DNA of 64,000 bases, taken from the NCBI GenBank assembly GCA_030704615.1, contig CM060732.1:32798001-32862000 (forward strand), in the 5' to 3' direction. The position numbers were made by a program, and so were the translations under genes. Shown here piece after piece: positions 32,251 through 64,000 of this stretch. Each line of letters opens with the position of its first letter. The stretch's first letter is position 1. The stretch is from Takakia lepidozioides (Eukaryota > Plantae > Bryophyta). The notes under the pieces were generated by a model, which did not search any database, was not told where the DNA came from, and was given only the letters and a program-made list of their open reading frames with translations.

Positions 32251-32483
32251 GGTCTCTTGCTTATTCTTGGCTACTTTGAAGATTTGGGTGTACAGATGGC
32301 AGGAAGGCAGTGATAGAAGGAGTGTTATCTTACTTGTGTGGAGCCCACACACAGAAACCCAAAGAGCACACGGGCCACAAACGCAGTCTCTCCCTCGTCT
32401 TCTCTCTCTCTCCATCTCTCACTAGTCCACTGAGAGTCCCACCTCACTGCAACGCACTGAGAGCAGCGGGGCTAGCTCCAGCT

Positions 32484-43250: not shown

Positions 43251-44929
43251 AGAGGTAGAGAACAATGATGATGTAGGTGTCTCTGAAGACAAAGGAGGCG
43301 TCTTTGTAGAACGCAAAGTAATTACCTGAAGCAAATGCAAAACTTAAACCCTCTTCCCCTTTCACTTCATCAGTGTGTGTAGAATCTGACAACAGTCCTG
43401 TAGGTGTAACATTATACCTGACTAGATCCACAGACATTGTGTTTGAGATGATTTTTAATATGCAACAACCATGCCCTCAGCTACTTCATTTCTATGGAAT
43501 TCCGAGTTTGCATCAATGAAGAAATGGTGTCAGAAATGGTGATGGTGTCATTTCTTGGACACCATCTACAATATCAGCAATGGTACTTCCCCAAGCCTGG
43601 AGGCAGAAGTTATACAATTGAGGAGATGCCCAAATGTGTACACGTCTCAATGCTTAGCTTGACTTATGAAATTACCATTGAGAGTCCAACCATGTTTGCT
43701 GTACAATGTACCTCAAGATGACGGTATGAAGTCCTCATACCTTCAGAACCAGAGAAATGGGTATACATCTTGAATTACAACACTGGCTCTGAAGTACTTG
43801 ACTCCAAGAAAACTAACCCCAACTGAGAATTCTATACGTGACCACAAACACAACTCGATCACAACAGTACAAAAACACCCCCACCTGGTGGACTGGATGG
43901 AATGGTACCACACACTTCAATTGATTTGAAGATCACCCCTAACTTGCTTCTACGAATCTGCATATATATTTGTTTCTATTGCAAATTACATGTACATTGC
44001 AATCAAAGACAGAAAAGACTAGTGTTGGGCTTGTGATGCCCCAAACTTTCCTCATCACAGATTCACCCGTTTCATCCAACACGGCGATACACATTCATCG
44101 TATATTTTTTTGGCGTATAAAGCCGTTAATCCGTTACAATGATGTTTAGGTTAGGGTTAGTTTAGGCTGGTGGCTTGATCTTGGCCCTTTGTTAGATCCA
44201 GGGCTGCAAGGCAGCACCGTGGGCTTGGGCCTATAATGCCTCACCACGCGGCGGGCCACTACGGTTAGGGCTTTTGTATAAAGACGGCGCCCTGACACAA
44301 GGTCAGGGCGGTGTACTCGGGTGTTGTTGTACATGTGATTTGAGTGTACAAGTTTTTGGATGAGAGCTGCTTAGTGTCTGAATCGTGTGTTTGATCCTCC
44401 TCTTGCGCGTTACTTGCTCTTTCCGCTCGCCCCTTTGTTGTGCAAGTTCGCTTCTTGAGAGGAAAGGAGTATATGCTTCAGGCTTGTTTTATGGTGGAGA
44501 GAAGCCGGGTATTCTAGGCGTGGTGGATCCTGCCCGCACTGTCAGGATCAGTTAGGTCATTCGCGGGATTTGCTCTACGTCATGCTGCCTAAGTGGTTCG
44601 CTAATGCGTGTTATCGATGGCGGCTCCTCGCTTTGCCCTCTTTTCTCCTGCTGTTGTGATTTTGTCGTCTCATGATGTGCGTTGGGTGTAATTGAAGGGG
44701 ATAGCTATAGTTCGTGATTTGTCTTGTGTAGCTCGCAGAGAGGGGGAGAGCATGTTCCTTCATATTAGCGTGGCACTTGCCATCGAGGCTGCTTCTAGTG
44801 TAGAGACTGACCCTGCTGCCACTTCTCATTCTGCTAGTGTTGTTGTTGTTGCTCCTCCCGTTGTTTCTAACCCTGTTGACACTCTTGCTGTTACTAACAC
44901 TACTGACGGCACGCGGCCTGGCATTGTTG

Positions 44930-45350
44930 TGTCATGGTTTTAGTCATGGTTATCTAGAATTACCTACTTCTAGTTAACTAGGACATTTTAGATATTTATA
45001 TTTATATTTTGTGTGTTGGGACTTCATTTGGTCTCACATGCCAAGTGAGGTGTCGAGCCTCACTTGAGACATGGAAATAGGTTTTCCCCTTGTGAGTGTT
45101 GAGGAGGCTCATCTTCTTGTAGTTGAGCCTCCATGAGCTTCTCTCACCTCCATAGCTCTAGGTATTGAGAGGGAGTGTGTTGAGGGCTTTGTAGGGTGGA
45201 TTCATTTAGCAAAGGTGCCCTTGGCTTGACTTAGTTTATATGATAGAGTGGATTTCACTTGGAAGGACTAGGGCTTGTTCTTCATGTGATTGCTTCATGC
45301 TTTGAGAGCTTTCATTGTCTTCTACTTCTCTCATTTCTCATCTCTTATCA
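44930..45350 (+). repeat. Terminal repeat A1
   Basis: TGTCATGG...CTCTTATCA, near-identical to 55379-55794 (a few substitutions and two small indels). Confidence 0.95.
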
Positions 45351-45351
45351 A

Positions 45352-45362
45352 TACAAGAAGAT
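45352..45362 (+). promoter_or_regulatory. Putative self-priming primer-binding site
   Basis: TACAAGAAGAT lies 1 nt after A1 and is the exact reverse complement of ATCTTCTTGTA (45111-45121) in A1. No TGG-type tRNA PBS is present. Confidence 0.65.
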
Positions 45363-46650
45363 CACCTTATGCTTGTGAGTGCGGAGTGTAAGGATTAATT
45401 TTGCACTTGTATTTTAAAGAGGTTGAGAGCTAGGAGAATTTAGCTCTTGTAGCACAAGGCTTGCAAGGGGTTGCAAGGAAATGTGCTCGAGTATTGCATG
45501 CACCAAGGAGTTGGAGAGCTTGAGAAGAAAGCTCTTGAGTCACAAGATTTTGCAAGGATTGTAAGGAGGAAGTCTTGTGTGTGTGGAAGCATGGATTCTA
45601 GGGTTTGAGAATCCTTTGTATGCATTATGGAGTCGATGGTGTGCGCCATGGCTTGTGGAGAGTGACTAAAGGCTTGTTAGTGCTCATTTCACTATCAAGC
45701 TAGGGTTAAGCAAGTTCAAAGTGTGGATGTTGTGGAAGAGAAGCCAATGAGCTATATATGCTTGGGCTTGAAGACAACAAGGGCAAGCACTTGGAGAGCA
45801 CTAAGAAACTCAAGAGGTTTTGAAAGGGAGCATGTGAAGAAATCTTCCAATCATGGTGGTGTGGAGCCAAGCTTAGGGTGCCATTGGAAGGGCTTGGAGA
45901 ACATGTGGTGGGAAATCCTTGAAGGGAAATCATCATTCAATGTATGCATAGCTTCACCCTAACTATGTAATGTGACAAGAGGGGGAGGCAATACTTGGCT
46001 ATTCATGCTCTTGGTAGTGCGAGCTTTGTGGTGGATAGTTGACCAAGCAAGTGGTGCATGTGTGGAGCATGCTCGCTTGAGTTTGTAAGTTCAAGTTTGA
46101 GAAGGGGAGCTCTTGAACTAGCAAGAGGTGAAGGCCTTTGAGATCCATTTGTGTGTGAAGTGGAGAGGTGTTGATTCATGTTATGATGAAGGAGAGCAAC
46201 ACATAGGCCAAGAGGTCATGAAACATGCATTCAAATGACCACGGGGAGCACATGGATGATGGATTGGTGCAAGACCCCAAATGAGGCATATGGCGTGAGA
46301 GTGGGATCCAAGGCGGATTGCTTGGGAGCATTATTGTAAGTGACAAGCATTGCTCCTACACATTGAGATAATTTGTGTTGATTTGGAGCAATTGTCAAGT
46401 GATGAGGAGACAAATGCATGATTATTCGGCAATGGAGATATGGTAGTTAAATCCCAAGGACTAGAAGGGGGATTGATTTGGTGGACAATGACTTGCAAGT
46501 TGAGTTGGACCACTCTTGGTTGCACATTGGGGTGGAAGAGAGCAAGAAGATGCCTCTTATGACCACCTAGAGACCATATTTTTGCTTGAGTAGAAGCATA
46601 GAAGTCAAGGACTTGCATTCTAGCTCTTACAAACCCTAGTAGTGTATGCT

Positions 46651-46952
46651 CAGACTATACCTCTGTTAGTATACCAAACAGGAGCTTGTCCCTTTGACTA
46701 TACCTCTGTTGAGGTATCACCATATGTGAACCCTAATGTGAGACTATACCTCTGTTAGTATACCAAACAGGAGCTTGTCCATTTTACTATACCTCTATTG
46801 AGGTATCACCATATGTAAACCCTAATCAGCTCAGACTATACCTCTGTTAGTATACCAAACAGAACCCTCATTTTCAGACTATACCTCTGTAAAGGTATCA
46901 TCAACATAAAGGACCCTAGCAACCTCAGACTATACCTCTGTTAAGGTATCAA
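46651..46952 (+). repeat. Array of seven ACTATACCTCT-core repeats in the element leader
   Basis: Cores at ~46654, 46697, 46743, 46786, 46835, 46878, 46929 (43-51 bp period, alternating spacers). ATACCTC-tgtt-GAGGTAT hairpin in alternate units. Confidence 0.9.
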
Positions 46953-46984
46953 CAGTGAAAGGACTTAGTGAAATTTAAGGGCCT

Positions 46985-47102
46985 TTGGAGGATTGTTTGG
47001 AAGATATTTGAGGGCCCTTGGAGGAGTATTTGGAGGATCTTTGGGGTCCTTGGAGGAGTGTTTGGAGGATCTTTGGGGTCCTTGGAGGACCCTTCAAGGA
47101 GC
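46985..47102 (+). repeat. Short TTGGAGGA-based tandem repeat
   Basis: TTGGAGGA recurs; TTGGAGGATCTTTGGGGTCCTTGGAGGA occurs twice. Confidence 0.8.
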
Positions 47103-47766
47103 TTTGGTGGACAATGTTGAAGAGCTCTTGAAGGATTGATTGAGGGATATTGAAGGATACTTGCCACGGCCATACAAGCGAGTGGATAGAGACAAGAGGG
47201 AGAGTGGTGGGATGAGAGCATTCTGGGGTTAGGAATTGCTTTAGTTTCTCTTCTCCATAGTCTTTCACCCTCTCTGTAGGCCAAAACCTTTCCGTAGGTG
47301 GAGGCAAGAGTCAGTCCGGGTTTGGGCTGGGGTGTCCTTGCAAGAGCGACACTGTGGAGTGTTTTTGGTGTGGGGGAGTTGCTGTCTTGATTTTCTTGTG
47401 TTTGGATCCCCTCCACACCTGCATGCTTGACTGTGCGCCATGTTAGCTTTGTGTGGGCGCATTTTTTCATAGGAGGTTGGTCCGGATTTGATCACCGGCC
47501 AATCCTAGAGTATGTTGTCGGTGGTGAGGCTGGAGTGATGACCAGCAAGACCACCAGTGTTTCTTCTATGGTGAGGCTGGGTTGATGACCAGCAGACCAT
47601 AGGAGTGCTTGCGGTGGATGCAGGTGCAAGTACAGGTCTACATTAGAAACCTATTATTCCTGCTTGAACCAGTAGCCGCAACAGGTTCTTTACCCGGTTA
47701 CCTTGTAGAAAGTGGGGATTAGAGACAGGTTGACAACCGGTTGGGTTGTGAGTTTTCATCACGGAG

Positions 47767-50660
47767 GTGCCACCAGCTGCTGAGGGGAGTGCCGGTACAA
47801 GCACCAGCGATACTAGTGGGTACACAAGACAAGGTGTGCGGTTTAGGCCACTTTCACCTTCAGTGTCTTCTGAGGAAGGTTCAGACTCGGAGTCAGGAGG
47901 ATTCTCGCCGAGGGTGCAAGTCATTTCCGTGCCATTGTTGTGGGACACGATGGAGGAGATGTATGGAGCTACCAAGGGGCCACGTAGGTACTCTGGAGCT
48001 GTGGGCACCATCGAGCTTGATGACTTTATACAAGAGTTTGACAGTTGGTGTGATTTGCAGCAAATGCGCAATCCACAACTGTTTACGCCCTTTATGGCGT
48101 GGAAGGGGCTATTCCAGCACCTTGAGGGGCCGCCCATGGATGATTACCATGAATTTAGGCGGGGACATGCGGTGGAGATTGAGGAGTGGCGAGAGTATTG
48201 GTCACCTAACTATGTCTCAATCACTAGAGGCACAAGGGCAGCGGTGACACCAGCAGCTACACAAACATCTCCAACTACAAGCACTAGTAGTGGAACAAGT
48301 AGTGCTGGCACTTCTGCAGGTGGTACCAGTTCAAAAGGTGCTACTACTCCTCCTGCCACAATTACAACACATGTGCCTAGATTCAACCCGGTGGTGGAGT
48401 TCTTCCAGGAGTTGCGGAGGAACTACCAAGGTGTACGGACAGAGAAGCTGCGAAGTTTGCAAGACTTCCAGCGCAAATCCAGTGAGAGCTTGCGAGAGGC
48501 CTACACTCGTATGAGGCGCTTGATAAGTGTGACCCAAGGGGTTACTGAAGCTCAGGCAGTCCAGTTCTGGTATGGAATTTTGGACAAGGAGCTCAAGAGA
48601 AGGGTGCGGGATGCAACCCTGTTACAAGCGCCCAACCCACATTAGCGGATGTGTTTCTGCTGGCTGAGCGGATTGAGCTCAACATGGTGGAGGAGCGAGT
48701 TGTTACCATTGGATTTGGCAAGGACATGCCTGCACGAGGTGCAGCTGCCAGCCAACAGGTACAAGGGACTGCCCAACAGCGTGGTCAGGGGGGCAAGGTT
48801 GCCCAACCCAAGTTCCATGGAGCTTACAGGGGACCTCAGGTGCAGAGGCCCGTGGCATCTTTTGCAGGCCAACAACAACTAGGGGTGATATGTTGGACAT
48901 GTGGAGGACCCCATGTCAAGAGAGATTGCCCAGAGAGTGGCAGAAGGCCGGCACAAGCACAGCCTGCACAGTTGCAGTGTGGGCATTGTGGCAAGTATGG
49001 GCATGGAGATGCCCAGTGTTATGACTTGCACCCTGAGTTGCGCCCAGGCCAGTTCCAGGGGAACAATGGTGGCCGGGGGCGAGGTGGACCAGCCCAGAGA
49101 GGACGAGGTACAGGCCAAGGGCAAGCTCAACATGGCCAAGGACGCGGAGGTCAGGGTGTTGACCAAGACATGGCCAACCGGCTTCAGCAGCTAGAGCAGA
49201 GGCTCGCTGCCATGGCTACAGCTCAGGTGGTACCGGCTCCCAGGCGGGATGGTCCACCTCCTGCTCCTAAGGGAGGAGATATGGGAGGCATGGGATTCAT
49301 GTGCGGAGCAGCACTACCACTAGTGCAGGTGGAGTCTGCTACAGCCGTGACTCGAGGAGCAGCACGAGTTCCTGAGCCACAAGGTGCAGAGGTGGAATTG
49401 GATCCACAGCGTGGGGAGGCAAGCCGTCAGGCGAGGCTTCCTCAGTCATTCATATTGGCGGAGACAGTGTCGACGCCATCCATGGCACCTAGTTCTCGCC
49501 CGACTGTTACCGAGGCGGAGGTTACTATGTCATTGGGGAGAGCTACACGTGCAGCACTGACACCTGCTACCAAGGCTAGTGCAGCCGGTGTGTTATTAGG
49601 GGCAGCCACCTCTGTGTGTCAAGCCCCACTGTTCTCAGCAACCATGATTGTGACGCCAGGGGTAAGACCAGCTGCAGTGTTCAGACTAGCAGCAACACTC
49701 TGCGAGAGTGGGGAGGTCACTTCATCTTCTGCGGAGTTACTGGAAGGTGTAGTGGCAGAGGGATCCTCGGATTTGAGGGTCAAGACTGCCACGGCTGCGC
49801 CATGGCAAGCTGCAGTTGCCAGGTTGACGGAGCTGCCAGCTAGGCCAGCCTTTGAGTGCGCCATGGTGACACCTGGAGTTGTCTTGTTAGACAACCAGGG
49901 AGGCATTTTCACTTTGAGTGGACCGGCAGGCAAGAAGTATCGGCCACTGCGGGTCTTGTTGGACTCAGGAGCTCAGCCACTGATGTTGGGCAGAGCTGCT
50001 ATTGCAGGTTTGGGCCTCATGGAGGCGGATATGGAGCCTTGTCCTTTCCAGATACAGACATCTCTGGGAGGATCAGAGCAGGCTCGGGGCATGACACGGC
50101 GTGAGTTGGTCATTGGACTACAACCAGATCATCATGTAGATGGCTCAGTGATGCGAGCCAAGGCCATTGTGACAGACGCGGTCTCTTACGATGTCCTTGT
50201 TGGTGGGGCAGTGTTATATCCCATGGGCTTCACCCTGGACTTTTGGGAGGAGTCAGCATCCTACAGGCCTGGATGGCAGTCAGGGGATGGTCGTCGTGCA
50301 CAGCTCCTTGTGACATTCATTGGGGGTATTGCGGCTGCCCAGCGAGGCAAGCTGCCAACACTAGCCGCCTTTACAACTGCAGTTAGTTGGCCTGGAGAGT
50401 TGCTGGAAGGCAATGCCCATGCAGAGGATGTGCCACCTCCAGCAGAGCAGGATGACATGCATGGTACGGCGGAGTTGCCTGCCATGGTTGCTCACACTCC
50501 ATTATGGGGTACGAGCAAGGATTTGCAGCAGGCTGCTGATGGACGGGTACAACAAGCCTGGGTAGAGGCCTTCGTACCGTCAGGAGAAGAGGAGAGTGCG
50601 GTGATTGCACTAGGACCACCTCAGTTGTCGCCATTGGACACCACACCTGTGTGGCAGTGC
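47767..50660 (+). CDS. Gag (two CCHC knuckles) and aspartic protease of the DNMT-Gypsy; frameshift ~48645
   Basis: Gag core, CWTCGGPHVKRDC, CGHCGKYGHGDAQC, RGG-rich linker, LLDSGAQ (~49956-49976), YDVLVGG. Confidence 0.9.
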
Positions 50661-50664
50661 CCGG

Positions 50665-51620
50665 ATGAAGGCATATGCCTTCTGGACTTGTTTGGCGGGA
50701 TCAGCACTGGATTGGCTGCAGTACTGCAGGCAGGTGTACGAGTTCGACGTTACCTGTATGTGGAGAGGGATGAGACTGCACGACGCGTCTCACTGCGCCA
50801 TGTTGCTCAGTTGGTACAGCAGTACCCTGATTTTTGCCAGTGTCTGCAGTTCGTGGATACCAACAAGCCTTGCCAGCAGACATTTGTTGTTGGGGGCGCA
50901 GGATTTGGAGCGGGTTGGCTCCATTGATCTGGTAGTGGCAGGTTGGCCCTGCCAAGGGCATTCATCAGCCGGGCATGGCAATGGATTGCGAGACTCGAGG
51001 ACGGGTCTGTTTTGGGAGATGGTGCGGATTTTGCGCCACTTGCAGCTTCATCAAGTTGTATCTCTAGCATACATCTTGGAGAATGTGCCACTGATGGGTG
51101 ATTCTCGGGCCAGGGTGATGGCCAGTGTGCATCAAGTCCGGTCGTGGCTTGGGTCAGCAGTGTTGCTGGATGCAGCTGCAGTGGGGTCATGGGCTCATCG
51201 TCCACGGCTATGGTGGACTAACTTGATGCCACCCGCACTGCTCAAGCGTGCATTTGATGGGGTGCAGCGGCCAGCACACCTCAGTGGATAGCATTTTGGA
51301 CACAGGAGGCAGTCTCAACGTGTGAGACACGATGACCGTTCGCCTTTGGCAGTGGTCAACAGGGTGGTCAACCACGAGCAGCATACCTACACTGCTCAGC
51401 TTCCCAGGATCCCATGCTTTTCGGGATGGTGGACCTGGCCTCTTGTGGGATAGCCAATTGCAACAATTAGTGGAGCCCAATGCTGACGAGCGCGAGCGGG
51501 CGATGGGTTTTACCACAGGTACCACGGCGGTGCCATCTCTTTCTGAGGCATCACGTCGTCAGGTGTTGGGGCAAGCAATGGATCTCAATTGCTTGACCTG
51601 GATTATCAGCTTGGCTATGG
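50665..51620 (+). CDS. C5-cytosine DNA methyltransferase domain (DNMT3-like) inside pol; frameshifted in this copy
   Basis: Motif I LLDLFGGISTG (50679), motif II YVERD, motif IV AGWPCQGHS (50938-50964), motif VI YILENV (51070-51087), motif VIII AHRPRLWWTNL (51193-51225), motif IX ERERAMGF (~51488), motif X RRQVLGQAM (51554-51580). Confidence 0.92.
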
Positions 51621-52039
51621 CTGAGCAGCGCAGAGTACGGAGTACACTTCCCTTCATGGTCTCCCTGCCTACCGAGACGGTACAGGCAGCGAGTTGGGGC
51701 GAGCAGGTGAGGACCACGAGGTGCAGGCCGCATCCATGGCAACGTGGGAGGTGCTCGAGGTTCAGAAGGAGTTGGCAGCCAAGGCGGCGGTGATGGATCA
51801 GGTTGGGGATTTTTCTCGGATTGAGAGAGGTCCTCAAGGATGGGATGATGGGCAGGATGAGACATTGTCACTGACAGAGGAGGCAGTGGTCACTGCTCAA
51901 GAGGTTGCAGCATAGCAACACGGGACGCGTCTTCTACCTCTAAGCTGCTGGACTCAAGGTTGCAGTCACGGAGGACAACTGGGAGCCTGATGTTGGACCT
52001 ATAGTCACCGGAGGAGAGAGACGACGTATACGGCGGTTC

Positions 52040-53400
52040 TTGAGGGCTTACAGGAACTGCTTTGCCTTCAGTTTGAAGGACTTAGGAGCACTGAAGGGTC
52101 AAGAGATTCGCATTGAATTGGCTACTGACACGCCAATCTTTCGGAGACCCTATAGATACAGTGACATGGAGAGGTCCTTGATTCAGATGAGAACTCAGGA
52201 CCTTTGGGAGGCTGGTTGGTGGAGCTATCTGGGGGAGAGTATGCTTCAGCCACAGTGATGCCAGCCAAGAAGGATGTCTTTGGCAATTGGACGGAGAGAG
52301 ACGTATGTGCGGTGATTACCGGCCTGTAAATCGTCAGACCAAGTCCGATAGGTATGCCATGCCAACACCAGAGGAGATCTTTGATGCCATTGGCATGCCA
52401 AGGTCTTTAGCACGTTGGATTTACGATCCGGATATCACCAGTTGCCGATCAAGGAGGCGGATAAGCAAAAGACGGCATTCTGGGGATCAATGAGCACGGA
52501 AGGATTAGGATTGCCTATACCAGTGGCGGTTCTTACCATTTGGGCTTAAGAACGCTCCGGCAGAGTTTCAGAGAGTCATGGACAGGATTCTAGCAGGGGG
52601 GAGTTTGCTCGGTGCTACATAGATGACATCATCATCTTTAGTGCTACGGTGGATGGTGGAAGGCATGAGAGACACCTTCAGGGGAGTTTGAGCGCTTGAG
52701 GGCGCACGGATTGAAGTTACATGGGGAAGTGCAAGTTTTCCACAACCAGATTGAGTATCTGGGTCACATGATATATCCTGGAGATTGGGGGTACAGCAGA
52801 CTAAGGTAGAGTCCATTGCACAGGTTCCACGCCCCACGGATGTGAGCCGAGTTCGAGCTTTCATGGGGTTAGCAAACTATTATAGACGGTTTGTTAAGGG
52901 ATTTAGTGCCATTGCAAAGGCTCTAACCAAGCTGACCAAGGTGGACCAGGAGTGGCAGTGGGAAGATGAGCAAGAACAAGCTTTTCAAGAGCTCAAGGCG
53001 AGGTTGACCTCGGCGCCCATCTTGAGACGACCTATCAGGGGGCGTCCTTTTCAGTGCATACAGATTGGAGCATGCTGGATGGGGCTTGGAGCGGTGCTCA
53101 CACAGGTGATGATGAGGAAGAGAGTTCGTAGTGGCTTATGCTAGCCGCCGAACAACGTTGCAGAGTCTAAGTATAGCTCATATGAGGAATGAATAGCTTA
53201 GCTGCAGTGTGGGCCGTGGCACACTTCAGGTGCTATCTATACGGCAATCTCTTCACCCTTGTCACGGATCACCAACCACTCAAGTGGTTGATGAGTCAGA
53301 CAAGCTTACGGGGAAGCTTGCACGGTGGCACTCATCCTTCAAAAGTATGACTTTCAGGTGGTGCATCGAACGGGTTTGGTCAATCGCAATGCAGATGGTT
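52040..53400 (+). CDS. Reverse transcriptase and RNase H of the DNMT-Gypsy (many frameshifts)
   Basis: RMCGDYRPVN, LDLRSGYHQL, LPFGLKNAP, YIDDIIIF (~52616), FMGLANYYRRFVKGFS, TDHQPL, GKLARW. Confidence 0.9.
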
Positions 53401-53689
53401 GAGTCGCAATCCATGCACAAGCCAGCAGGATGACACTGGAGCTCGGTGGCATGGTGAGACGGACGAGGAGATGGGGCCCAGATGGCATGGCATCTGCATT
53501 TTCGTGTATCTTGGCAGCGGAAGACCAGGTTGGACCTTGCAATAGGGATGACTGTAGATCAAGTGTCTGAGGACCCTGAGGCAGCAATGAGAAGGGGGCG
53601 CCAAAGATATTTCATGAGGATTCAGTTGTGTTGGACTACCCCGCACTGGAGACACTGCAGCCAGTGTGACTGCCAAGGAGAGGGATCGA

Positions 53690-55034
53690 TCCTACAACGA
53701 GCCAAGAGGTTCAAAGGGGGAGGGGACACACTGCTCCGAGTGTGGGAGGATGGTCGAGTGAGGATTGTGCCTCACCCAACACGTGGCATGCCCATGAGGA
53801 GTTGGGGCATTTTGGGGTGCGACGCACTCATAGTCTACTGCAGGGGCAGTATTGGTGGCGTGGTATGCACACAGAGGTGCAACAATTTGTGGCTAGGTGC
53901 ATGGTGTGTGACAGGGTGCGTGCTTCATTCAACGCCCCTACTCCACAATTGCACCCTCTTCCGATCATGGGATTGGGCTACAGGTGGAGTCTTGACTTTG
54001 CAGGGCCGTTGCCACTGACCATGTACCACAACAAGTACGTGTTGGTGATGGTGGAGCACTTCTCCAAGTGGATTGAATTGGTTCCATTGCCTGATAAGGC
54101 TAGTGAGGGAGCTGCGTATGCATTCTTGGATTGTGTGCTTAGCTGATTCGGTGCTCCAGCTGAGGTACTCACGGACCAAGGGAGAGAGTTCTTGGGGGAG
54201 TTTCAGGCTTTGTGTGACAAGGCCTTGATAGACCACCGCACCACTTCTCGGGATCATCCTGAGGCCGATGGCTTGGCAGAGAGAGTTGTTCAGACAGTAA
54301 AGAGGGGTTTGCGCAAGTATGGTTTGCAGAAGGGACACCTAGGAGATTGGGACCTTCAGTTACCCTGGTTAGCCATGGGCTACAGGTTCAGCAAGCAAGC
54401 ATCACTTGCCTCCTTCTCACCATACTTTCTTCTCTTTGGCCGAGAGCCGGATTTGCCTACATCCATTCGCAGAGAAGTTGCTACCGTTCTTAACCTTGAC
54501 GATCCAGACGTGTGGGCACATGCATGTGAGCAGCGTGCAGAGTTGTTCAAGAAAGTCATGCCCATGGCTTTCGAGAACCTTGCCATTGCACAAAATCGTG
54601 ATACGTTGAGGTATGCTACCATACGTGGTGGGGGCTATCATCCTGGGGTTCGGAGATTCAACCCTGGTGACTATGTTTATCTGCAGCAGACTGCTCCTAC
54701 GACCTTGGATGTGACTGCAGGACGTACTATTTTGAGGGTTCGAGAGGTTTTGCCCTCGGGAGTCATGATCTTGGAGGGTCGGGATGGCATGATTTGGAAG
54801 GACCATGTGCGTAATTGCGCGCCATGTCACCTTCCAAATATTGATGGAAGGGTTGACCCAAACCTGGCAGTGGTACCTGCAAGTTTGAGGTGCATGTTGT
54901 GTGGGTCTGCTAGAGGGGCAGCCACCATGCTGGTGTGTGATCAATGCTCTAGAGGTTGGCATATGAGATGCTTGACTCCACCTCTTGAGATGGTTCTTGA
55001 TGGGGATTGGTTATGTCCGCATTGCATTGGATAG
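53690..55034 (+). CDS. DDE integrase with C-terminal PHD finger
   Basis: HHCC (HEELGHFG...CMVC), SLDFAGP, LTDQG.EF, DGLAER. PHD CMLC...MLVCDQCSRGWHMRCLTPPL...GDWLCPHC (54890-55027). In-frame TGA at ~54144. Confidence 0.93.
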
Positions 55035-55291
55035 TGAGAGTGGATACAACCATGGAAGGCTAACAAGAAATGCAAGGCCAAGCTACTAGGAGACCAACAC
55101 ACGAGATCCTGACTCAAGTTCACAGATTGCAAGACGGCAAGTAATGATGGGGTTGCTCTTGTACCCGGCCTCTTGGTCTATAGAGTTTGAGTACAATAGG
55201 GACAGTGATAGAGGACTTAGTACGGCTGTGGCTATTACATCTTGTAGCTATCTGGAGTTAGAGGGACCTAACCACCAGCTAGGGGGGCGAT

Positions 55292-55376
55292 TGTGGTATA
55301 GCTTTCTAGGATTGTGTGCTTAGATTGTGTGGTGGACAGCGATGTATGTTGTGGCATGATGCTTAAGTGCACGACA
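55292..55376 (+). repeat. Terminal repeat B1
   Basis: TGTGGTATAG...GCACGACA, 85 bp, directly after the PPT; 2 mismatches to B2. Confidence 0.95.
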
Positions 55377-55378
55377 GT

Positions 55379-55794
55379 TGTTATGGTTTTAGTCATGGTT
55401 ATCTAGAATTACCTACTTCTTAACTATGACATTTTAGATATTTATATTTATATTTTGTGTGTTGGGACTTCATTTGGTCTCACATGCCAAGTGAGGTGTC
55501 GAGCCTCACTTGAGACATGGAGATAGGTTTTCCCCTTGTGAGTGTTGAGGAGGCTCATCTTCTTGTAGTTGAGCCTCCATGAGCTTCTCTCACCTCCATA
55601 GCTCTAGGTATTGAGAGGGAGTGTGTTGAGGGCTTTGTAGGGTGGATTCATTTAGCAAAGGTGCTCTTGGCTTGACTTAGTTTGTGATAGAGTGGATTTC
55701 ACTTGGAAGGACTAGGGCTTGTTCTTCATGTGATTGCTTCATGCTTTGAGAGCTTTCATTGTCTTCTACTTCTCTCATTTCTCATCTCTTATCA
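55379..55794 (+). repeat. Terminal repeat A2
   Basis: TGTTATGG...CTCTTATCA, copy of A1. Confidence 0.95.
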
Positions 55795-55795
55795 T

Positions 55796-55880
55796 TGTGG
55801 TATAGCTTTCTAGGATTGTGTGCTTAGATTGTGTGGTGGACAGCGATGTATGTTGTGGCACGATGCTTAGGTGCACGACA
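55796..55880 (+). repeat. Terminal repeat B2
   Basis: Copy of B1, followed by the TSD GTTG. Confidence 0.95.
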
Positions 55881-58800
55881 GTTGCCTTGCCAGCATCGCC
55901 TCTTCCTGAGCCTGCTGCTTGCGTTCCAGCCCTTGTTGTTTCATTGGGTTCTCCTGGTGGTAGTGATTATGATAATCTGGGGGAGGTAGAGGCGTGGTCG
56001 CCAAGGTTTGAGAGGTCTGACAGCTCTCTAGATAGTTGTGACCCGGACTACTACAACTTTGACAATTTTGTGGATCCAGGCCCTGAATATTTTGAAAGTA
56101 GGCAGCAAGCAGCAAAATTAGAAAGAGACATTGAATTGTTGCAGGAAATAGATGATCTGTTGTGTGAAGTATGTGACGAAGATCAGCTTTGGTTTGAGCG
56201 TGTAGAGAGAGTTGTTGTAGGTGATCTTGCTGCACTAACCAGTCATCACGAGGCCCTGTTCACACGACCTTTGCTTGAGCCTGGTGCGGTGATCTCCAGG
56301 GCCAGACAGCTTGCTAAGCGAGAATTTGAGCTACGCACTGAAGAGCGTCTACCGTCCAAGGCGACCAAGTCGCGTTTTCTAAACCATCGTGAATTAACCT
56401 GGTTGGAAGTTGGCTTGTATCTGCCTCTTTCTGGTGTTCGAAGTGCAGAGCTTCATCATGGCCTTGGCGTGGTAGGGAGAAGTTGGTTGTCGTTGATGTT
56501 ACAAGGCATAGGGGCTTTGATCTTTACGGTTTCAGCTCCGGCCTTGCGCCTTGGCACCTACCTATTCACAGTTAATTGATGGTCTGACGGATGGGGCCTT
56601 GATAGTACAGTCGTCTGATCTAGTGGTCTTGGGTGTGGGCACTGCCTTTGCTTCACAGTAGGCTCACCCGAGCGCGTTTGAGAGACTGAGTGATTGTTCA
56701 AACTCGACTGTGCTTTCGCGCACCTGGAGAGAGGGTGACACCACCCGCGTTGGCTTTTGGCTTAAAGGAGCTGATGGTTGGGAGTGGCTGGCATTGGGGA
56801 TCTACGAGTTAGAATCACACAAGGTGCTGAGGGTGGTGTATTGCTCCACTTGGGTTCCAGAAGACAGCTCGCCAAGTACTTGGCCCACGCTCCACATCCC
56901 TGCGGCTTGAAGGTTATGCCTCCAATCCAACCTTGTTTCTTGCATGCTAGGTGATTCTAGTACCACTTGGTTGAGATCTGGAAGACAGAGGTCCATGCAT
57001 AATTCAGGAAAACCGCTGGTCGAAAGTATAGTAGAGGTGAATGAGGAATCGGACAACCTGCAGGCAGGTAATTTCATGGTGAGTGATGATGAATTTTGAA
57101 TGTTGGGACAATGGGGGCAGTTGTGGAGTCCCCAACTGATATTCCATTAGTTGATGAGGTGTCTGGGATAGCCACCCTCGAGGGCCTTTCTGTCTATGAT
57201 CGGCGTGATGAGGACTTGGAGACTAGACGGACTGAGCCCATGCTGGCTCGGGAATTACACATTCTGCCCTCCCATCCTCCTCATGGGGATCGAAGGGTCT
57301 GGTTCGGATGTATGGGCTACTACGAGCAGTATGCTGGCCCAGGTTGCTAACTTGAGTCTTAGGATGCTGCCTGTTGTGAATTTCCCTAGTCCCACTCTCG
57401 GGGGAGGGAACTTGTTGCCCGTGAATTCGGGTATGAATGTGAGCAGTCTTCCTGTGTTGAACGTGCATGGTGTTGTTCAAGGTGGGGGTGTCATGATGCA
57501 AGGGCCCTCTAGTATGTCTGCTACTCTGCCTCCTGCCATAGCTGGTCAATCTGTGGGGGCTCTCCCTGCTACACGGGCTGGGGTGCCACCACATCTTGTC
57601 TCTAGCCAGTCCATAGATATGCATGCTAGCAATATCCCTCTTAGCAGTATCCGATCTGTGTCAACACAGCCGGTGGGAGTGGCATCCACTCTTCCCATGA
57701 GCGGCATGCCACAAACCCACTTGCAGTCTACTAACCCTGCTGCTCAGCCAAGTGTGGCAATACCTGCTCTTCCCATGGGCACGGTGGCGCCACGTCTGTC
57801 AGCCTCAACTGCTATAAGATCAGTTAGTAATAATAATGTGTGTGGTAATTCTGCATCTAATGTTGGATATGTGCATGGTAATGCTGCTCCCATAATTCCT
57901 TGTTGCCCTGCTCATGGATCTGTCCTCCCTGGTCATATCAACCATAGCCTACCTTGTCATCTAATCCACCAGCTGACCACTCAACCTTACCCAAAATATA
58001 CAATGGGAGAAGACTTTGATAGATATCTTCAGATGTTTGAGGTCATTGCTAGTGTGAATGGGGTTCCTGAGAATTTCAAGATGGCAATCTTTAGGATGAG
58101 TATGAAGGGACCAGCTCGGGACTTACTGCATGCAGCCGTGATGGATGATCCCAGCCTCAACTGGGCAACTCTGGTGGAATGGGCAAAGACCTTGTTCAAA
58201 CCTCCTAAGAGGCCTCTGGATTGCTTTACCAAGCTTTCGGCCAGGACTTACCAACCTGGGGAATCCTTGTGGAAATATTACATGGATCTTAAGTTTGCTG
58301 CTGTTGAAAACATCATAGACTCGGTAGAGAGGGATCGTATGGTTAAAAGGTATTTTCTCCTTGGGTTGCCTTCCACTATTCAGAATTGGGCTCAGCAGCG
58401 TCATTTTGTTGATGACGAGACTATGTTAGCAGAAATTAATGTTAAAATGGCAGACTTGGCTGACGTCAAATCAATGCACCATCGTGCCAAGTTTCAAGCT
58501 CCGGTGGGCTCAGAGCTTGGCATGTCTGCAACATCCTCACCCTATGCTCCTCCTAAGACATGTAAGGCTGATGATTTTACTCTTCAGGGGTTGGCTAATA
58601 CTGTGGGAAGTCTTAGTGAGTCTGTGGCCACTCAGTTTGCTGCCATGCAGACTCATCAACAAAGATGGCAGCCTCGCCACAACCAAGGAACAACAGGAGA
58701 TAACAATAGGGGTCGAACCCAGACTGGGCAAGCCTATGAGTGCAATCGTGCTGCCTATTACATTTGTGGGTCTTTTGAACACTAGACGAAGCATTGTCCA

Positions 58801-59569
58801 GACATAGCAGGGCTACCAGAGCTGATCAAGAACAAGAAAACAGCCAATGTCTCTTCCCCTCCTTTAAACTAGCACGATCTCTTGGGAAGGGGGCAAGAGG
58901 TCCATCATCTACCAACCCTGTTTCTTCTGTTCCGATTCAAACTGTTCTATCTACTAACATCAAAGGTTTGCATTGTCCTCTCAGTAGGCAGACTGTTGGC
59001 CAGCAGATCAGTCCCCTCATGGCGCAGTGCCATATCCATGAGCTCAGCTTTCCCTGTGTGGTTGATACTGGATGCACTATATCTGCCATACCTTTGAGTG
59101 TTGTGAGAGTTCTTGGTCTCAAACTATGCCCTGCCACAGGTATTGAGGTGTTTGTTGCAGATGGATCCAGGTATGAGCCCTTAGGACTAGTCACTATTCC
59201 CATCAGAATTCATAAAAAGGAGGTTGTGGTTACTTGTATAGTCACCATTGGAGATCAATTCCTTCTAGGCCTTCACTGGATGACCAGAGTTGGTGCCACC
59301 ATTAGCTAGCTGACTACTCCCTTCACTTTAACAATGGAGAAGGGCATGAAGTAGTGGTTCCCTTGAAAGCAATGAAGATCAAGGCTGGGTCTGCTACAGC
59401 CAATCTGTCCAGAGTCCAAGCCCTGGTAAAGGAGGTATAGCAGAACTCTCACTCCAATCTCAATTGGAATGATTTCTACAAGTTTCAGCCTGATCTTCAA
59501 CTCTTATATCAGTGGCATGTTCCTGGTGCTAAGGAAAGAACAAGGGTGCCCATAGCTATTCCAAAGAAT

Positions 59570-59880
59570 TCTACTCTAATTCGTGCACCTCTCAACATCA
59601 CCATCCCTGCCTTGACCCAAAGGGTGGTCAAGTCTAGTCTGGCTTTCTTGTGTCCCGCTGCTCATTTCCTAGAAATTGAGGGTTGGAGGAGATTGACTGC
59701 TCTTAAGCACTGCCTGGTGGCCACTGGTGTTCTTGATAGAGGATATAGACAGGAGGTTAAGATCCTGATTGCTAATCCTGAACGCTTCCCTGTGACTATT
59801 AAAAAGGGGCAGGTTTTGGCTCGCATCACTGCTCTTCCCATTGCAGACATACAAGAGGTGCATGCTGGTTTTGGTCTTGA
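59570..59880 (+). CDS. dUTPase-like domain between protease and RT of the host Gypsy
   Basis: ITIPALTQRVVKSSLA...P...LEIEGWRRLTALKHCLVATGVLDRGYRQEVKILIAN...TIKKGQVLARI...AGFG aligns by eye to trimeric dUTPase motifs 3 (GVID.DYRGE), 4 (GDRIAQ) and 5 (GFG). Confidence 0.7.
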
Positions 59881-61230
59881 GGCCATTGGCATCCAACATG
59901 GCCCCTTAGATGTAGTTGTTGCCTTTGCTGCAGTTGCACCACCACCTGTTCCTAATCTCAGCCTGGGAGGTAAGAAGGCCCTCACCAAAGTTTTATCTGA
60001 AATCAAGTTAGGCACAACTCTCTCCTCTAGACAAAGGAGGAAGGTGGAAGTGCTTATTGCAAAGAATCTAGATATTTTCAGTTTGGGATCCACTGACCTA
60101 GGGCGCACTCCTATTCTTCAATATGACATTGTCACTGAAGGGGCTCCTATTAAACAATTTGCTTACCGAGAGAGTGTCAAGGAACGTGCCATAATCCAGG
60201 AAGAAGTCCAGAAGATGCTTGATGCTGGTGTGATTAAACCTTCAGTCTCTCCTTGGGCTAGTCCAATTGTCCTAGTTGGAAAGAAAGATGGCACAACCCG
60301 CTTCTGTGTTGACTTCTGAAAGTTGAATGACATCACAAAAAAGGATGCCTACTCTCTACCCAGGATTAATGAGACCTTGGATCAACTACATGGTGCTACA
60401 ATTTTCTCCTCTCTTGATCTTGCATCTGGCTTTTGGCAAGTTCATCTTACTGAAGCAGCCAAGGAAAATACCTCTTTTGTGTGTCGTATGGGTAAGTGCC
60501 AATATGAGACCATGTCTTTTGGTTTGTGCAATGCCACCTCTACTTTCCAACGCCTCATGGACATTGTCTTGGGCAATCTTCGCTGGGAGTGTGCTTTAAT
60601 TTATGTTGATGATATCAATGTTTACTCAGCCAGCTTTGATGCTCACTTAGCTGATCTGCAGCGTGTCTTCAGCAAATTGCGCACTGCAGGCCTTAAAGTG
60701 AAGCCCAAGAAATGTGAACTATTCATGCCTGAGCTCCACTTCCTTGGCCATGTTCTGTCCAAAGATGGTTTGCTTCCTGATCCTGCCAAGCTTGAGTCTG
60801 TTTGGGGCTTTCCTATCCCCAGGGATAAACATTGTATTAAATCCTTCCTTGGTCTGGCCTCTTATTACCGGCGCTTCATAAAGAACTTTGCTAAGCTTGC
60901 TCACCCTCTGACCAAGATGTTGTGCAAAGATGCCAGGTTTGAATGGACCTTCTCCCAACAGGCTGCTTTTGACACCCTTCGCAAGGCCTTGTGTTCAGCT
61001 CCCATCATGATGTTTTCCAACTTTGAGTTACATTTCTTGCTTCAGACTGATGCATCTAATGTTGCCATCTTTGCGATCTTATGTCAAGTTGTAGAAGGCA
61101 AGGAGCATGTCATAGCTTATGCATCCCGTCGTCTAGATCGTCATGAAAGGAATTATTTCATATCTGATAAGGAGGGTCTAGCCCTGGTCTTTGGTGTGAA
61201 GCATTTTCGGCAATATTTGCATGGTAACCG

Positions 61231-64000
61231 TGTCGTGCGCATACATATCGCTACACAACTACATCGCTGTCCAAAATCACACAACACATGTGCACACCAC
61301 ACACTAGTATACCACTACTCCACCACTAGTCCAGACACTAGTCCAACCACTAGGCTACAACTAGTCAGTCACTAGGCTGCCACTATGCTGCCCACTATGG
61401 CAGTCACTAGTCCACACAATGATAAAGAAGAAGAATACAAGCACGAGCTCACAAATTTGAAGCATAAACTCATGCATATATAACCTCATCACTCAAATAC
61501 AAGTCAAGCCAAGTGCACCCCACGCCATGGGGAATCCACACTACGGCGCCATAGCTAGGCGCGGTGAGGCTCAACTCGAGAAAGATGAGCCTCCCGCGCT
61601 TGCCGTGAAGATAACCACTCCAGGGCCTAAATCTGCTTTGACCCCTGGATTGACACTTGGGCCAATCCCAAATGTCAATATGTAAAAGCTAGCTATTTCC
61701 TAGCTAGTTTCACACTAGTGGTAAAATAACTCGACAGCTGTCGTGCGCATACATATCGCTACACAACTACATCGATGTCCAAAACCACACAACACATGTG
61801 CACACCACACACTAGTATACCACTAGTCCACCACTAGTCCAGCCACTAGTCCAACCACTAGGCTACAACTAGTCAGTCACTAGGCTGCCACTATGCTGCC
61901 CACTATGGCAGTCACTAGTCCACACAATCGCCCCCCTAGCTGGTGCTTAGGTCCCTCTAAGTCCAGGTAGCCACAAGATGTGATAGTGACCATAGCCTCA
62001 CTAAGTCCTCCACCACTATCCCTACTACACTCAAACTCGATAGATCAAGAGGCCGGGTGCAAGAGTTGCCCCATCGTTAGTCGCCGTCTTGCAACCTGTG
62101 AACTTGAGCTTGGGATCTCATGTATTGACTCCTATGAGCTTGGCCTCCCATGTCTTGTTAGCTGCCTCCAGTCATGTCCACTGCCACTATCCCAAGCAGT
62201 GTGGACACAACCAATCTCCGTCAGGAACCTTCTCAAGAGGTGGTGTCAAGCATCCCATATGCCAACCCCTTGAGCATCGATCACACACCAGCATGGTGGC
62301 TGCCTTTGGCAGACCCACAGAGCATGCACCTCAAACCTGCAGGTACCACTGCCAAGTTTAGGGTCAACTCTGCCATCGACATTGGGAAGGTGACATGGCG
62401 CACAATTACGCACATGGTCCTTCCAAGTCATGCCATCCCGACCCTCCAAGATCAGGACCCCTGAGGGCAACACCTCTCGAACCCTCAGAATAACACGCCC
62501 TGCAGTAACATCCAGAGTCATAAGAGCAGTCTGCTGCAAATAAACATAGTCACCAGGGCTAAACCTCCGAACCCCAGGACGATATCCTCTACCACGTATA
62601 GTGGCATACCTCAACGTATCACGGTGCTGTGCAATGGCAAGGTTCTCAAAAGCCATGGGCATGACTTTCTTGAACAACTCTGCACGCTGATCACATGCAC
62701 GTACCCACACGTCCGGATCGTCAAGGTTAAGGACTTGAGCAGTGTCCCTACGAATGGCTGCAGGCAAATCCGGCTCTCGGCCAAAGAGAAGGAAATATGG
62801 TGAGAAGGAGGCAAGTGATGCTTGTTTGCTGAACCTGTAGCCCATGACTAACCAAGGAACCTGAAGATCCCAATCTCCTAGGTGTCCCTTTTGCAAGCCA
62901 TACTTGCGCAAATCCCTCTTCACCGTCTGAACAACTCTCTCTGCTAAGCCATCAGCCTCAGGATGATCCCGAGAAGTGGTGCGGTGGTCTATCAAGGCTT
63001 TATCACACAAAGCCTGAAACTCCCCCAAGAACTCTCTCCCTTGGTCCGTGAGTACCTCAGCTGGAGCACCAAATCGGCTAAGCACACGATCCAAGAATGC
63101 ATACGCAGCCCCCTCACTAGCCTTGTCAGGCAATGGAACCAACTCAATCCACTTGGAGAAGTGCTCCACCATCACCAACACATATCTATGGTGGCGCATA
63201 GTCAGTGGCAACGGTCCTGCAAAGTCAAGACTCCACCTGTAGCCCAATCCCATGATTGGTAAAACATGCAACTGTGGTGTAGGGGTGTTGAATGAAGCAC
63301 ACACCCTGTCACACACCATGCACCTAGCCACGAACTGTTGCACCTCTGTATGCATACCACGCCACCAATACTGCCCTTGCAATAAACTGTGAGTGCGTCG
63401 CACTCCAAAATGCCCCAACTCCTCATGGGCATGCCGCACTAACCGTGCACGCTGTGTGGGGTGAGGCACAATCCTCACCCGACCATCCTCCCACACTCGA
63501 AGTAGGTGTATCCCCTCCCACTTGAACCTCTTGGCTCGTTGCAAGATCCGATCCCTCTCCCTGGCAGTCACAGTGGCTGTCGTGTCTCCCGTGCGGAGGT
63601 AGTCCAACACAGCCGAATCCTCATGTATATCTCTGGCACCACCTGGCTCATCACTAGCCTCAGGGTCCTCAGACATTCCATCTACAGTCATCCCTGTTGT
63701 AGGTCCAACCTGACCTCCCGATGCCAAGATACACAAAAATGCAGATGCGTGCCATCCCGACACCATCTCCTCGTCCGTCTCACCATGCCACCGAGCTCCA
63801 GTGTCATCCTGCTGGCTCATGCATGGATTGCACTCAATCCATCCGCATCCCGATTGACCAAACCCGGTCGATGCACAACCTGAAAGTCATACTCCTGGAG
63901 TATGAGTGCCCACCGTGCAAGCTTCTCCGTAAGCTTGTCTGACAACCACTTGAGTGGTTGGTGATCCGTGACAAAGGTGAAAAGATTGCCGTATAGATAG
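61231..64000 (-). mobile_element. Second, diverged member of the DNMT-Gypsy family (3' part: RNase H end, integrase, PHD, PPT, B1-A2-B2); continues beyond the window
   Basis: ORF 63820-62246 is highly similar to 53400-54900. PHD ~62335-62200 (frameshifted). PPT at 61941-61927. B1 61926-61739 and B2 61418-61231 (188 bp each); A2 61736-61420. Confidence 0.93.

Follow-up and report, generated by a model that had tools for sequence, protein, structure and literature searches.

The 64,000-nucleotide stretch of the Takakia lepidozioides genome analysed here (contig CM060732.1 of assembly GCA_030704615.1, positions 32,798,001 to 32,862,000; hereafter the window) contains a Ty3/Gypsy retrotransposon, element 1 (44930-55880), in which a PHD finger terminates the integrase and a DNMT3-like DNA methyltransferase is encoded upstream, in the order Gag, protease (PR), DNMT3, reverse transcriptase (RT), RNase H (RH), integrase (IN) and PHD. 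The finger, at 54891-55025 on the plus strand, is a complete C4HC3 type with the spacing C-x2-C-x11-C-x2-C-x4-H-x2-C-x14-C-x2-C; it is the sole complete in-frame match to the C4HC3 pattern in the six frames of the 64 kb, and it scores 41.2 bits against Pfam family PF00628 (curated cut-off 24; E 1.7e-10). It forms the final domain of the integrase open reading frame (ORF) at 54147-55034, two residues ahead of the stop codon at 55032-55034, and this ORF continues an integrase whose H2C2 and rve domains start within 53670-54146. Pattern, profile score and ORF position thus bear out the initial annotation, which had the integrase ending in a complete C4HC3 finger. A chance match to the PHD pattern was rejected, as was a neighbouring host PHD gene, the finger being in frame with the integrase and lying within the element repeats. 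A second finger had also been assigned to copy 2, a partial copy on the minus strand; its sequence is indeed present there, but it is out of frame with the integrase and split by a frameshift. The features of the two copies are as follows.

44926-44929, plus strand: left copy of a 4-bp target-site duplication, the same four bases standing at 55881-55884
44930-45350, plus strand: terminal repeat A1, starting with TG, the 5' end of element 1 (aligned with A2 over 416 bases, it shows 5 mismatches, besides 5 gap positions)
47752-48645, plus strand: N-terminal part of Gag (PF03732, E 8.8e-4, under the curated cut-off; aligns to ORF1 of metagenome locus L006)
48549-50927, plus strand: C-terminal part of Gag, with zinc-knuckle-like motifs read from the translation, and the start of the DNMT
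49941-50270, plus strand: aspartic protease (PF13975, E 0.009, under the cut-off; also a local profile partly seeded with the same stretch)
50640-51631, plus strand: DNMT3-like C5 cytosine methyltransferase domain, spread over three reading frames (PF00145, E 1.2e-12; PC, ENV and RxR motifs)
51913-51918, plus strand: TAG CAA, situated past the DNMT linker and ahead of RT, a candidate leaky stop by comparison with the stop and CAR of relatives
52210-53402, plus strand: reverse transcriptase and RNase H with several frame breaks (PF17919, E 9e-11; local profiles)
53787-54824, plus strand: integrase with H2C2 zinc domain, core, long helix and SH3-like beta domain (the last at about 54672-54824; PF17921, PF00665 and structural model)
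54144-54146, plus strand: in-frame stop inside the integrase, read from the sequence
54891-55025, plus strand: C4HC3 PHD finger at the end of the integrase ORF (Pfam, pattern, Protein Data Bank (PDB) sequence matches and model)
55281-55287, plus strand: polypurine tract immediately 5' of B1, read from the sequence (a G run precedes B1 in the other loci inspected)
55292-55376, plus strand: repeat B1, TG...CA (2 mismatches in 85 bases against B2)
55375-55380, plus strand: B1/A2 junction CA-NN-TG with spacer GT, an internal copy of both element ends joined
55379-55794, plus strand: repeat A2, from comparison with A1
55796-55880, plus strand: repeat B2, ending in CA, the 3' end of element 1, from comparison with B1
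55881-55884, plus strand: right copy of the 4-bp target-site duplication, matching 44926-44929
61231-64000, minus strand: copy 2, 3' part only, with the end of RNase H, integrase, PHD, B1, A and B2 (88% identical to copy 1 at the nucleotide level across 2095 columns)
62747-63415, minus strand: integrase of copy 2, part of 61231-64000
about 62196-62328, minus strand: frameshifted PHD of copy 2, the break lying between Cys2 and Cys3 by sequence comparison
61739-61928, minus strand: B1 of copy 2, by repeat comparison
61231-61420, minus strand: B2 of copy 2, by repeat comparison

Conservation and spread of the integrase PHD finger

Searches with the integrase-PHD ORF as query returned 269 longer homologues, of which the best 120 underlie the counts given here; homologous proteins carry P-numbers and metagenome loci L-numbers (80 loci, many of them near-duplicates). 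PF00628 is present in the precomputed Pfam assignments of 119 of the 120 proteins and the full C4HC3 pattern in 116, and the finger is found at 72 of the 80 loci, or at 68 of the 69 with room for it, prevalences that are inflated by the ranking of both searches with a query that included the finger and that have to be discounted accordingly in the reading we favour below. A DNMT-anchored search of long proteins gave at least three matches, all with the finger, too few for an independent estimate of prevalence. Named homologues occur in Marchantia polymorpha (Mp_7g09570), Klebsormidium nitens (KFL_015960010), Haematococcus lacustris, Pleodorina starrii and a 'Chrzof1' gene model, which we take to be from Chromochloris, and the nearest named relative comes from Marchantia, at 74% identity.

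All eight zinc ligands are invariant in 81 aligned rows whose sequences are 46-79% identical. The ratio of nonsynonymous to synonymous polymorphism (pN/pS) of the finger lies at 0.34-0.49 in 14 comparisons, uncorrected and not independent of one another, and averages 0.41 for the finger vs 0.21 for the integrase core across these 14 loci, which were selected from the 80 for being close and free of gaps. By these ratios the finger is under purifying selection, looser than that on the integrase core, and together with the invariant ligands and the lineage-wide presence they uphold its description as a conserved, selected part of the integrase C-terminus. This leaves very little room for the idea that the finger was picked up a single time and, being neutral, now decays as a passenger: the roughly twofold higher pN/pS and the damage to both window copies would fit such a history, but a passenger would hardly have kept its ligands at this level of divergence, from chlorophytes to a liverwort and at nearly every locus with room for it, and the passenger reading appears largely refuted by this conservation.

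An AlphaFold2 model of the integrase and its finger, built from the 81-row alignment (mean predicted local distance difference test score (pLDDT) 75, predicted template modelling score 0.39), shows core helices and then a long helix; residues 176-226 fold into a beta domain of five strands, and the finger comes after it. The pLDDT blocks reach 84-96 from residue 191 onward and 86-96 across residues 241-295, which comprise the PHD. The top Foldseek match of the model is the Ty3 integrase 7q5b (E 1e-7), with a low TM-score (0.20). The chromodomains of chromoviruses sit at the C-terminus of the integrase, the same position that the PHD occupies here. Just ahead of the linker to the finger lies Cys-Ala-Pro-Cys-His (about 54816-54830), the second Cys of which (Cys227) is invariant in the 81 rows; the corresponding motif xxPC[HFY] is present in 112 of the 120 homologues and is possibly a further metal site. 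Most of P0045, P0061, P0121 and other chlorophyte-like homologues carry 100-430 residues past the finger, to which no family is assigned in precomputed Pfam.

Trees of RT-RH and of the integrase were computed with FastTree. Both separate elements with the DNMT before RT from those with the architecture RH-DNMT-IN-PHD; the integrase tree is midpoint-rooted with weakly supported deep branches, and in the RT-RH tree the window row is partly out of frame, which makes its branch length meaningless. A DNMT tree was poorly resolved at depth. The clade with the DNMT before RT (support 0.994 in the integrase tree) contains the window, L006, P0015 and the Klebsormidium-like L027. P0116 encodes PR-RT-RH-IN-PHD in one ORF without a DNMT and nests with P0108 among DNMT-bearing elements, a placement that suggests loss of the DNMT with retention of the finger.

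Residues that bear on histone binding

The invariant tryptophan of the aromatic cage in PHD fingers stands two residues before the His ligand. This position is Gly in the window and in 111 of 116 fingers, and Trp in none of them, on which grounds reading of histone H3 trimethylated at lysine 4 (H3K4me3) was rejected. Sources are cited by accession here, and statements about them hold for their accessible text: fingers of the ING and BPTF type that read K4me3 have an aromatic cage with an invariant Trp, and readers of unmethylated lysine 4 (K4me0), to which BHC80, AIRE and KDM5 PHD1 belong, have no aromatic cage and carry acidic residues ahead of Cys1 (PMC3241642). In KDM5A, D312, P331, G333 and W335 contact H3 Arg2 and Ala1 (10.1101/715474), and the corresponding positions in the 116 fingers are Asp after Cys3 in 111, Pro six residues before Cys7 in 110, Gly four residues before it in 107 and Trp or Phe two residues before it in all 116. 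The best 60 of 71 PDB sequence matches of the finger include CHD4, KDM5B/KDM5A PHD1, PHF12, ATXR5, DPF3 and PHF21A; the fingers of KDM5A/B PHD1, CHD4, BHC80/PHF21A and ATXR5 share with it the absence of an aromatic cage and the Arg2/Ala1 contact residues. Because the K4me3 cage is absent and the Ala1/Arg2 contacts are kept, the finger most likely serves to tether the integrase to H3 tails that lack K4me3.

Several features of the finger weigh against a tether of this kind. The window has the Asp, Gly and Trp of the Arg2/Ala1 pocket but Leu at the Pro position, where copy 2 has Pro. An acidic residue two to five residues before Cys1 is absent from the window and from 11 of its 13 nearest homologues, one five to seven residues before Cys3 (the E305/D306 region of KDM5A) is absent from 12 of the 13, and these 13 fingers are net neutral to basic (0 to +4), the more distant group being acidic. 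In KDM5A terms, the window finger and its nearest relatives differ in having neither the acids that bind Lys4 (D292, E305) nor the second Asp that binds Arg2 (D315) (10.1101/715474). The distant group has acidic residues at the first of these sites in 58 of 82 fingers and at the second in 76 of 82, and an intermediate group has them ahead of Cys1 in 15 of 21. These residues suggest that the affinity of a window-type finger for H3 may be low, or blind to the state of K4. The proposal that the PHD reads H3 therefore holds in part: its closest solved relatives belong to a class that reads unmodified H3 (PMC3241642), but the pocket for K4 is absent.

The same residues bear on a different proposal, that the finger of the window subfamily does a non-histone job, either binding nucleic acid or a host factor or stabilising the C-terminal domain or multimer of the integrase, possibly together with the invariant upstream Cys. 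Some PHD fingers do bind non-histone partners (PMC3241642), and the loss of the acidic K4-pocket residues, the net basic charge of the 13 nearest homologues and the invariance of Cys227 within xxPC[HFY] (112 of 120 homologues) all point this way. The best-kept residues other than zinc ligands are nevertheless the sites that contact H3 Ala1 and Arg2 in KDM5A. The Trp of that pocket also belongs to the PHD core, which tempers this objection, and we hold a non-histone role to be unlikely.

The methyltransferase domain and its relation to the finger

The DNMT domain upstream of RT in the window keeps the catalytic PC, ENV and RxR motifs. The uninterrupted DNMT of L006 has DNMT3A/B/C as its top PDB matches, and the catalytic Cys is kept in 41 of 42 aligned DNMT rows; in many chlorophyte-like DNMTs, Glu replaces the Pro before it. 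Of the 120 proteins, 49 have a recognisable DNMT and most of the others are too short to test; the domain lies between RNase H and integrase in 30, before the integrase in 17 whose 5' part is missing, and before RT in 2. At 25 testable loci it lies before RT in 22 and after RNase H in 1, and 2 have none. The DNMT thus takes two positions across the lineage, and the finger follows the integrase in both architectures. In the window the two domains are about 1,000 residues, or 3.3 kb, apart, with RT and RNase H between them. The initial annotation was right that the PHD travels with a DNA-methylation writer, given a DNMT3-like domain with catalytic motifs in the lineage; its suggestion that this element itself assembled the pair is contradicted by the occurrence of the same combination in chlorophyte-like relatives.

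An analogy had also been drawn with the ADD domain. In DNMT3 and ATRX, ADD consists of a GATA-like finger and an all-Cys PHD-like finger beside the catalytic domain. The finger here is a plain C4HC3 type with a His ligand, some 3.3 kb from the DNMT, and no ADD match was found among its Pfam hits at E 0.01 or the best 60 of its 71 PDB hits; capture of an ADD together with the DNMT3 was rejected on these grounds. ADD is a companion of animal DNMT3, and algal DNMT3s are described as having no companion domains (PMC12344493). ADD-like sensing of K4me0 is doubtful because the nearest relatives of the finger do not have the acidic K4 pocket, which is absent in the window and in 11 of 13, and the analogy finds no support on this point or in the domain type.

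Two annotated proteins of this lineage carry misleading labels. P0123, whose DNMT is 94% identical to that of L006, is labelled as a bacterial methyltransferase from a bacterial metagenome bin and is likely plant DNA in that bin. Marchantia Mp_7g09570 (P0004), labelled PHD-type, is a gene model stitched together from the end of a protease, DNMT pieces, an integrase and a PHD.

Whether DNMT and PHD belong to one polyprotein depends on the subfamily. Both lie in a single ORF in P0015, P0022, L061, L068 and 27 proteins with RT-RH-DNMT-IN-PHD. In L006, a single stop (TAG CAG TTA) interrupts 1,469 codons from DNMT to PHD; a stop followed by CAR stands 261-282 nt ahead of the RT profile at 11 of 21 loci with the DNMT end and RT start in one frame, and in the window TAG CAA at 51913 lies about 270 nt ahead of RT. 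DNMT proteins from other clusters (P0123-P0128, P0131) end at the matching place. UAG-CARYYA is a plant-virus readthrough signal (PMC4132726), and from the conserved context we infer readthrough at the TAG-CAR stop. This reading has to contend with the full CARYYA hexamer occurring only in L006 (the window has CAACAC and most others CAACCC), with another subfamily of nine loci that has no conserved stop and in four cases no stop at all there, and with P0015 and P0022, in which the conserved stop is absent. L027 has a TGA elsewhere and not at the conserved site. Splicing, or re-initiation at an ATG that follows the stop in one subfamily, are alternatives to readthrough. The claim of one polyprotein accordingly stands for the relatives with a single ORF but not for the window as assembled, which has at least 14 frame changes and stops at 54144-54146 and 51913-51915.

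These data also bear on a coupled reader and writer, in which the PHD would aim or activate the DNMT at K4-unmethylated chromatin as ADD does, through an uncleaved DNMT-IN-PHD protein or through contact in the integration complex. Such coupling would be more plausible in the RH-DNMT-IN-PHD architecture, and in 46 of the 49 DNMT-bearing homologues the DNMT lies directly ahead of IN-PHD in one ORF. The DNMT is present at 23 of 25 testable loci with its catalytic Cys in 41 of 42 rows, and the clade with the DNMT before RT (0.994) nests inside the RH-DNMT-IN-PHD group of the midpoint-rooted tree, which means that the adjacent arrangement may be the older one. In the clade of the window, however, RT and RNase H separate the two domains and a conserved stop precedes RT at 11 of 21 loci; P0116 has the PHD without a DNMT; neither the Pfam hits at E 0.01 nor the best 60 of 71 PDB hits contain an ADD; and algal DNMT3s are without companions (PMC12344493). 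We consider coupling improbable, and a physical reader-writer pair, as originally envisaged, is at odds with two DNMT positions against a fixed PHD, with P0116 and with the stop that sets the DNMT apart from RT-RH-IN-PHD.

Ends, integrity and surroundings of the element

Element 1 has the traits of Ty3/Gypsy elements, with the order PR-RT-RH-IN, an H2C2 and rve integrase, TG...CA ends, a target-site duplication and a polypurine tract. Its ends are not two matching long terminal repeats (LTRs): repeat A stands on the left and a polypurine tract followed by B-A-B on the right. This A-coding-B-A-B arrangement is complete in the window, L037 and L079 (L030 ends at a contig edge), and all three loci for which the two ends are available have the 4-bp target duplication, perfect in the window and in L079 but with a single mismatch in L037. 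By eye, and without comparison to tRNAs, no primer-binding site beginning with TGG could be made out behind A1 in the window, in L037 or in L079. A-coding-B-A-B is the repeat order given for DIRS (PMC5890265). DIRS identity was rejected on the 4-bp duplication, the DDE integrase and the absence of a tyrosine recombinase match in the Pfam scan, and chromovirus identity on the absence of a Chromo match in the 16 ORFs scanned with Pfam.

The junction CA-NN-TG was found at 29 of 59 loci having at least 450 bases past the PHD, with spacers GC (11), AC (10), GT (5), AT (2) and TC (1); the spacer of copy 2 is GC. AC, GT and AT would be products of C-to-T change on either strand from GC. The palindromic end-to-end form CA-GC-TG is seen in copy 2 (about 61733-61740) and in loci such as L011, L029, L030 and L031; it resembles the circle junctions of the IS3 family. 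Staggered cuts after each CA of the junction would yield ends like processed integrase substrates.

The insertion of element 1 looks young because its repeats (A1/A2 and B1/B2) differ at only 7 of 501 aligned bases. The coding region from Gag to integrase has at least 14 frame changes, and the copy as assembled is non-coding; part of this damage may be assembly error because contigs of four sequencing runs show numerous small insertions and deletions relative to the window (12 and a further 63). In run X1, 36,600 contigs match 4.35 kb of element 1, a figure that is not a copy number and that points to many diverged copies. Element 1 sits in sequence that recurs in the host, both left of 44926 and right of 55881, and one contig of run X10, compared by eye, runs from left-flank-like sequence straight into 55881, the pattern expected of an empty site. 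Copy 2 leaves the window at 64000, and any DNMT region of it would lie outside.

Within the 5' untranslated region of element 1 there is a tandem array of units of about 90 bp (46638-46952), and to the right of the element a 257-residue open frame (55806-56579, plus strand) has no Pfam match. A third, distinct Gypsy-type element (57172-61243, plus strand) comprises a Gag-like ORF, protease, dUTPase (PF00692, E 8e-9), RT and RNase H, the last interrupted by copy 2 at about 61231. The observed/expected ratio of CpG is 0.49 across 47750-55034 of the window and 0.26 in the third element, with CHG near 1.0, a depletion consistent with CG methylation in the host. Some 10 kb to the left of element 1, separate ORFs encode pieces of fructose-1,6-bisphosphatase (FBPase; about 32760-34890, plus strand; PF00316, PF18913), which would fit a host gene with introns, and a degenerate tandem array (31673-32269) lies upstream of them.

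Discussion

The reading that we favour, with confidence only somewhat above even, is that the PHD acts as an integration tether on the H3 N-terminus without K4me3 in an old green-plant Ty3/Gypsy lineage, and that the DNMT acts separately. After protease processing the finger would stay attached to the integrase and grip the free H3 N-terminus on nucleosomes without K4 trimethylation, which would bias the intasome from H3K4me3 promoters to intergenic or repeat-rich chromatin, as with the chromodomains of chromoviruses. In the window subfamily, the DNMT would be made with Gag-PR ahead of the leaky stop, be packaged in excess over the integrase and methylate the cDNA of the element or its fresh insertion. 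The two domains would thus serve one strategy, landing in quiet chromatin and looking silent, without ADD-like gating of the enzyme by the PHD.

Each of the two copies in the window lies within or next to another Gypsy element (n=2, weak support for a tether), and Gypsy-7a_cRei of Chlamydomonas reinhardtii, which resembles element 1 in having a PHD in Gag-Pol that is proposed to limit harmful insertions, has 2.6 times more intergenic insertions than chance (PMC9940879). A number of points pull the other way. The authors allow selection as the cause of that bias (PMC9940879), and Gypsy-7a_cRei, which may lie outside our lineage, differs in that the figure legend lists no DNMT. Element 1 itself lies about 10 kb from the FBPase gene, and the DNMT of KnitGypsy-Dnmt3 gave no methylation in yeast, a result that its authors call inconclusive (PMC5890265).

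KnitGypsy-Dnmt3 of Klebsormidium nitens (de Mendoza et al. 2018, PMC5890265) is like element 1 in its Gypsy gene set, a Dnmt3 in Pol and DIRS-like repeats; the word PHD is absent from the searchable text and supplements of that report, though its Fig. 4c may draw one. L027 (DNMT-RT-RH-IN-PHD) shares its integrase clade with the window. Over 306 residues it shows 93% identity to KFL_015960010 of K. nitens, and because of this identity and its DNMT before RT the KnitGypsy-Dnmt3 family probably has the PHD too, a link that runs indirectly through L027 and KFL_015960010. KnitGypsy-Dnmt3 was reported from K. nitens, whereas the relatives described here reach Marchantia and chlorophytes, take two DNMT positions and have a subfamily-specific stop.

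REM1 of Chlamydomonas reportedly has its PHD in an antisense ORF of its own. Chlamydomonas elements are said to contain PHD fingers commonly (PMC8557442), and such fingers are described as widespread in retrotransposons (PMC6673714) and as frequent in transposon fusions (10.1101/2021.11.30.470311). Chromoviruses likewise place a chromatin reader on a Ty3/Gypsy integrase as a proposed guide of integration (PMC6317226), for which chromodomain targeting by MAGGY is cited (PMC6673714; 10.1101/2021.11.30.470311), but that reader is a chromodomain and not a PHD, and the elements have paired LTRs and no DNMT; the accessible text of the REXdb survey that defines Selgy, Phygy and Tcn1 does not contain the word PHD (PMC6317226). 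The EpiLTRs (10.64898/2026.05.21.726589) also combine a histone reader with DNA methyltransferases in LTR elements; they differ in using a chromodomain as reader, in writing with DAM and a DNMT placed as sister of DNMT4, and in their hosts, Cymbomonas and Euglena, and their authors set them apart from streptophyte Gypsy-DNMT3 elements. PHD-Gypsy, DNMT3-Gypsy and chromodomain-DNMT elements are thus each already published. In freely searchable text, no description came up of a Gypsy lineage that joins a PHD with a DNMT3 and reaches land plants, nor of the candidate leaky stop or the CA-GC-TG junction, though subscription papers, theses, figures and bioRxiv supplements may contain one.

A more far-reaching scenario, which we put forward as speculative and rather unlikely, is that an overlooked Ty3/Gypsy lineage of chlorophytes, charophytes and non-seed land plants, missed by finders of paired LTRs, runs its own epigenetic programme: the leaky stop would load DNMT3 at Gag levels for pre-methylation of the cDNA, the PHD would target K4me3-free chromatin, and the CA-GC-TG junction would rebuild the ends, possibly via a circle opened by the DDE integrase. 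The split ends in any case raise the question of how an element with a DDE integrase rebuilds its termini.

Copies of this kind can be mis-annotated as host DNMT or PHD genes, as with Mp_7g09570 and P0123. With these findings the range of Gypsy elements bearing a DNMT3, formerly a single alga, grows to include land plants and chlorophytes. Integration targeting by chromodomains has been worked out (PMC6673714; 10.1101/2021.11.30.470311), and the PHD fingers of retrotransposons have been described as possible guides. This lineage offers a case in which that role may be tested: its PHD is fixed at the integrase end and occurs naturally in acidic and in basic form, some members have a DNMT and others do not, and relatives are found in Marchantia and in green algae, for which chromatin maps are open to comparison.

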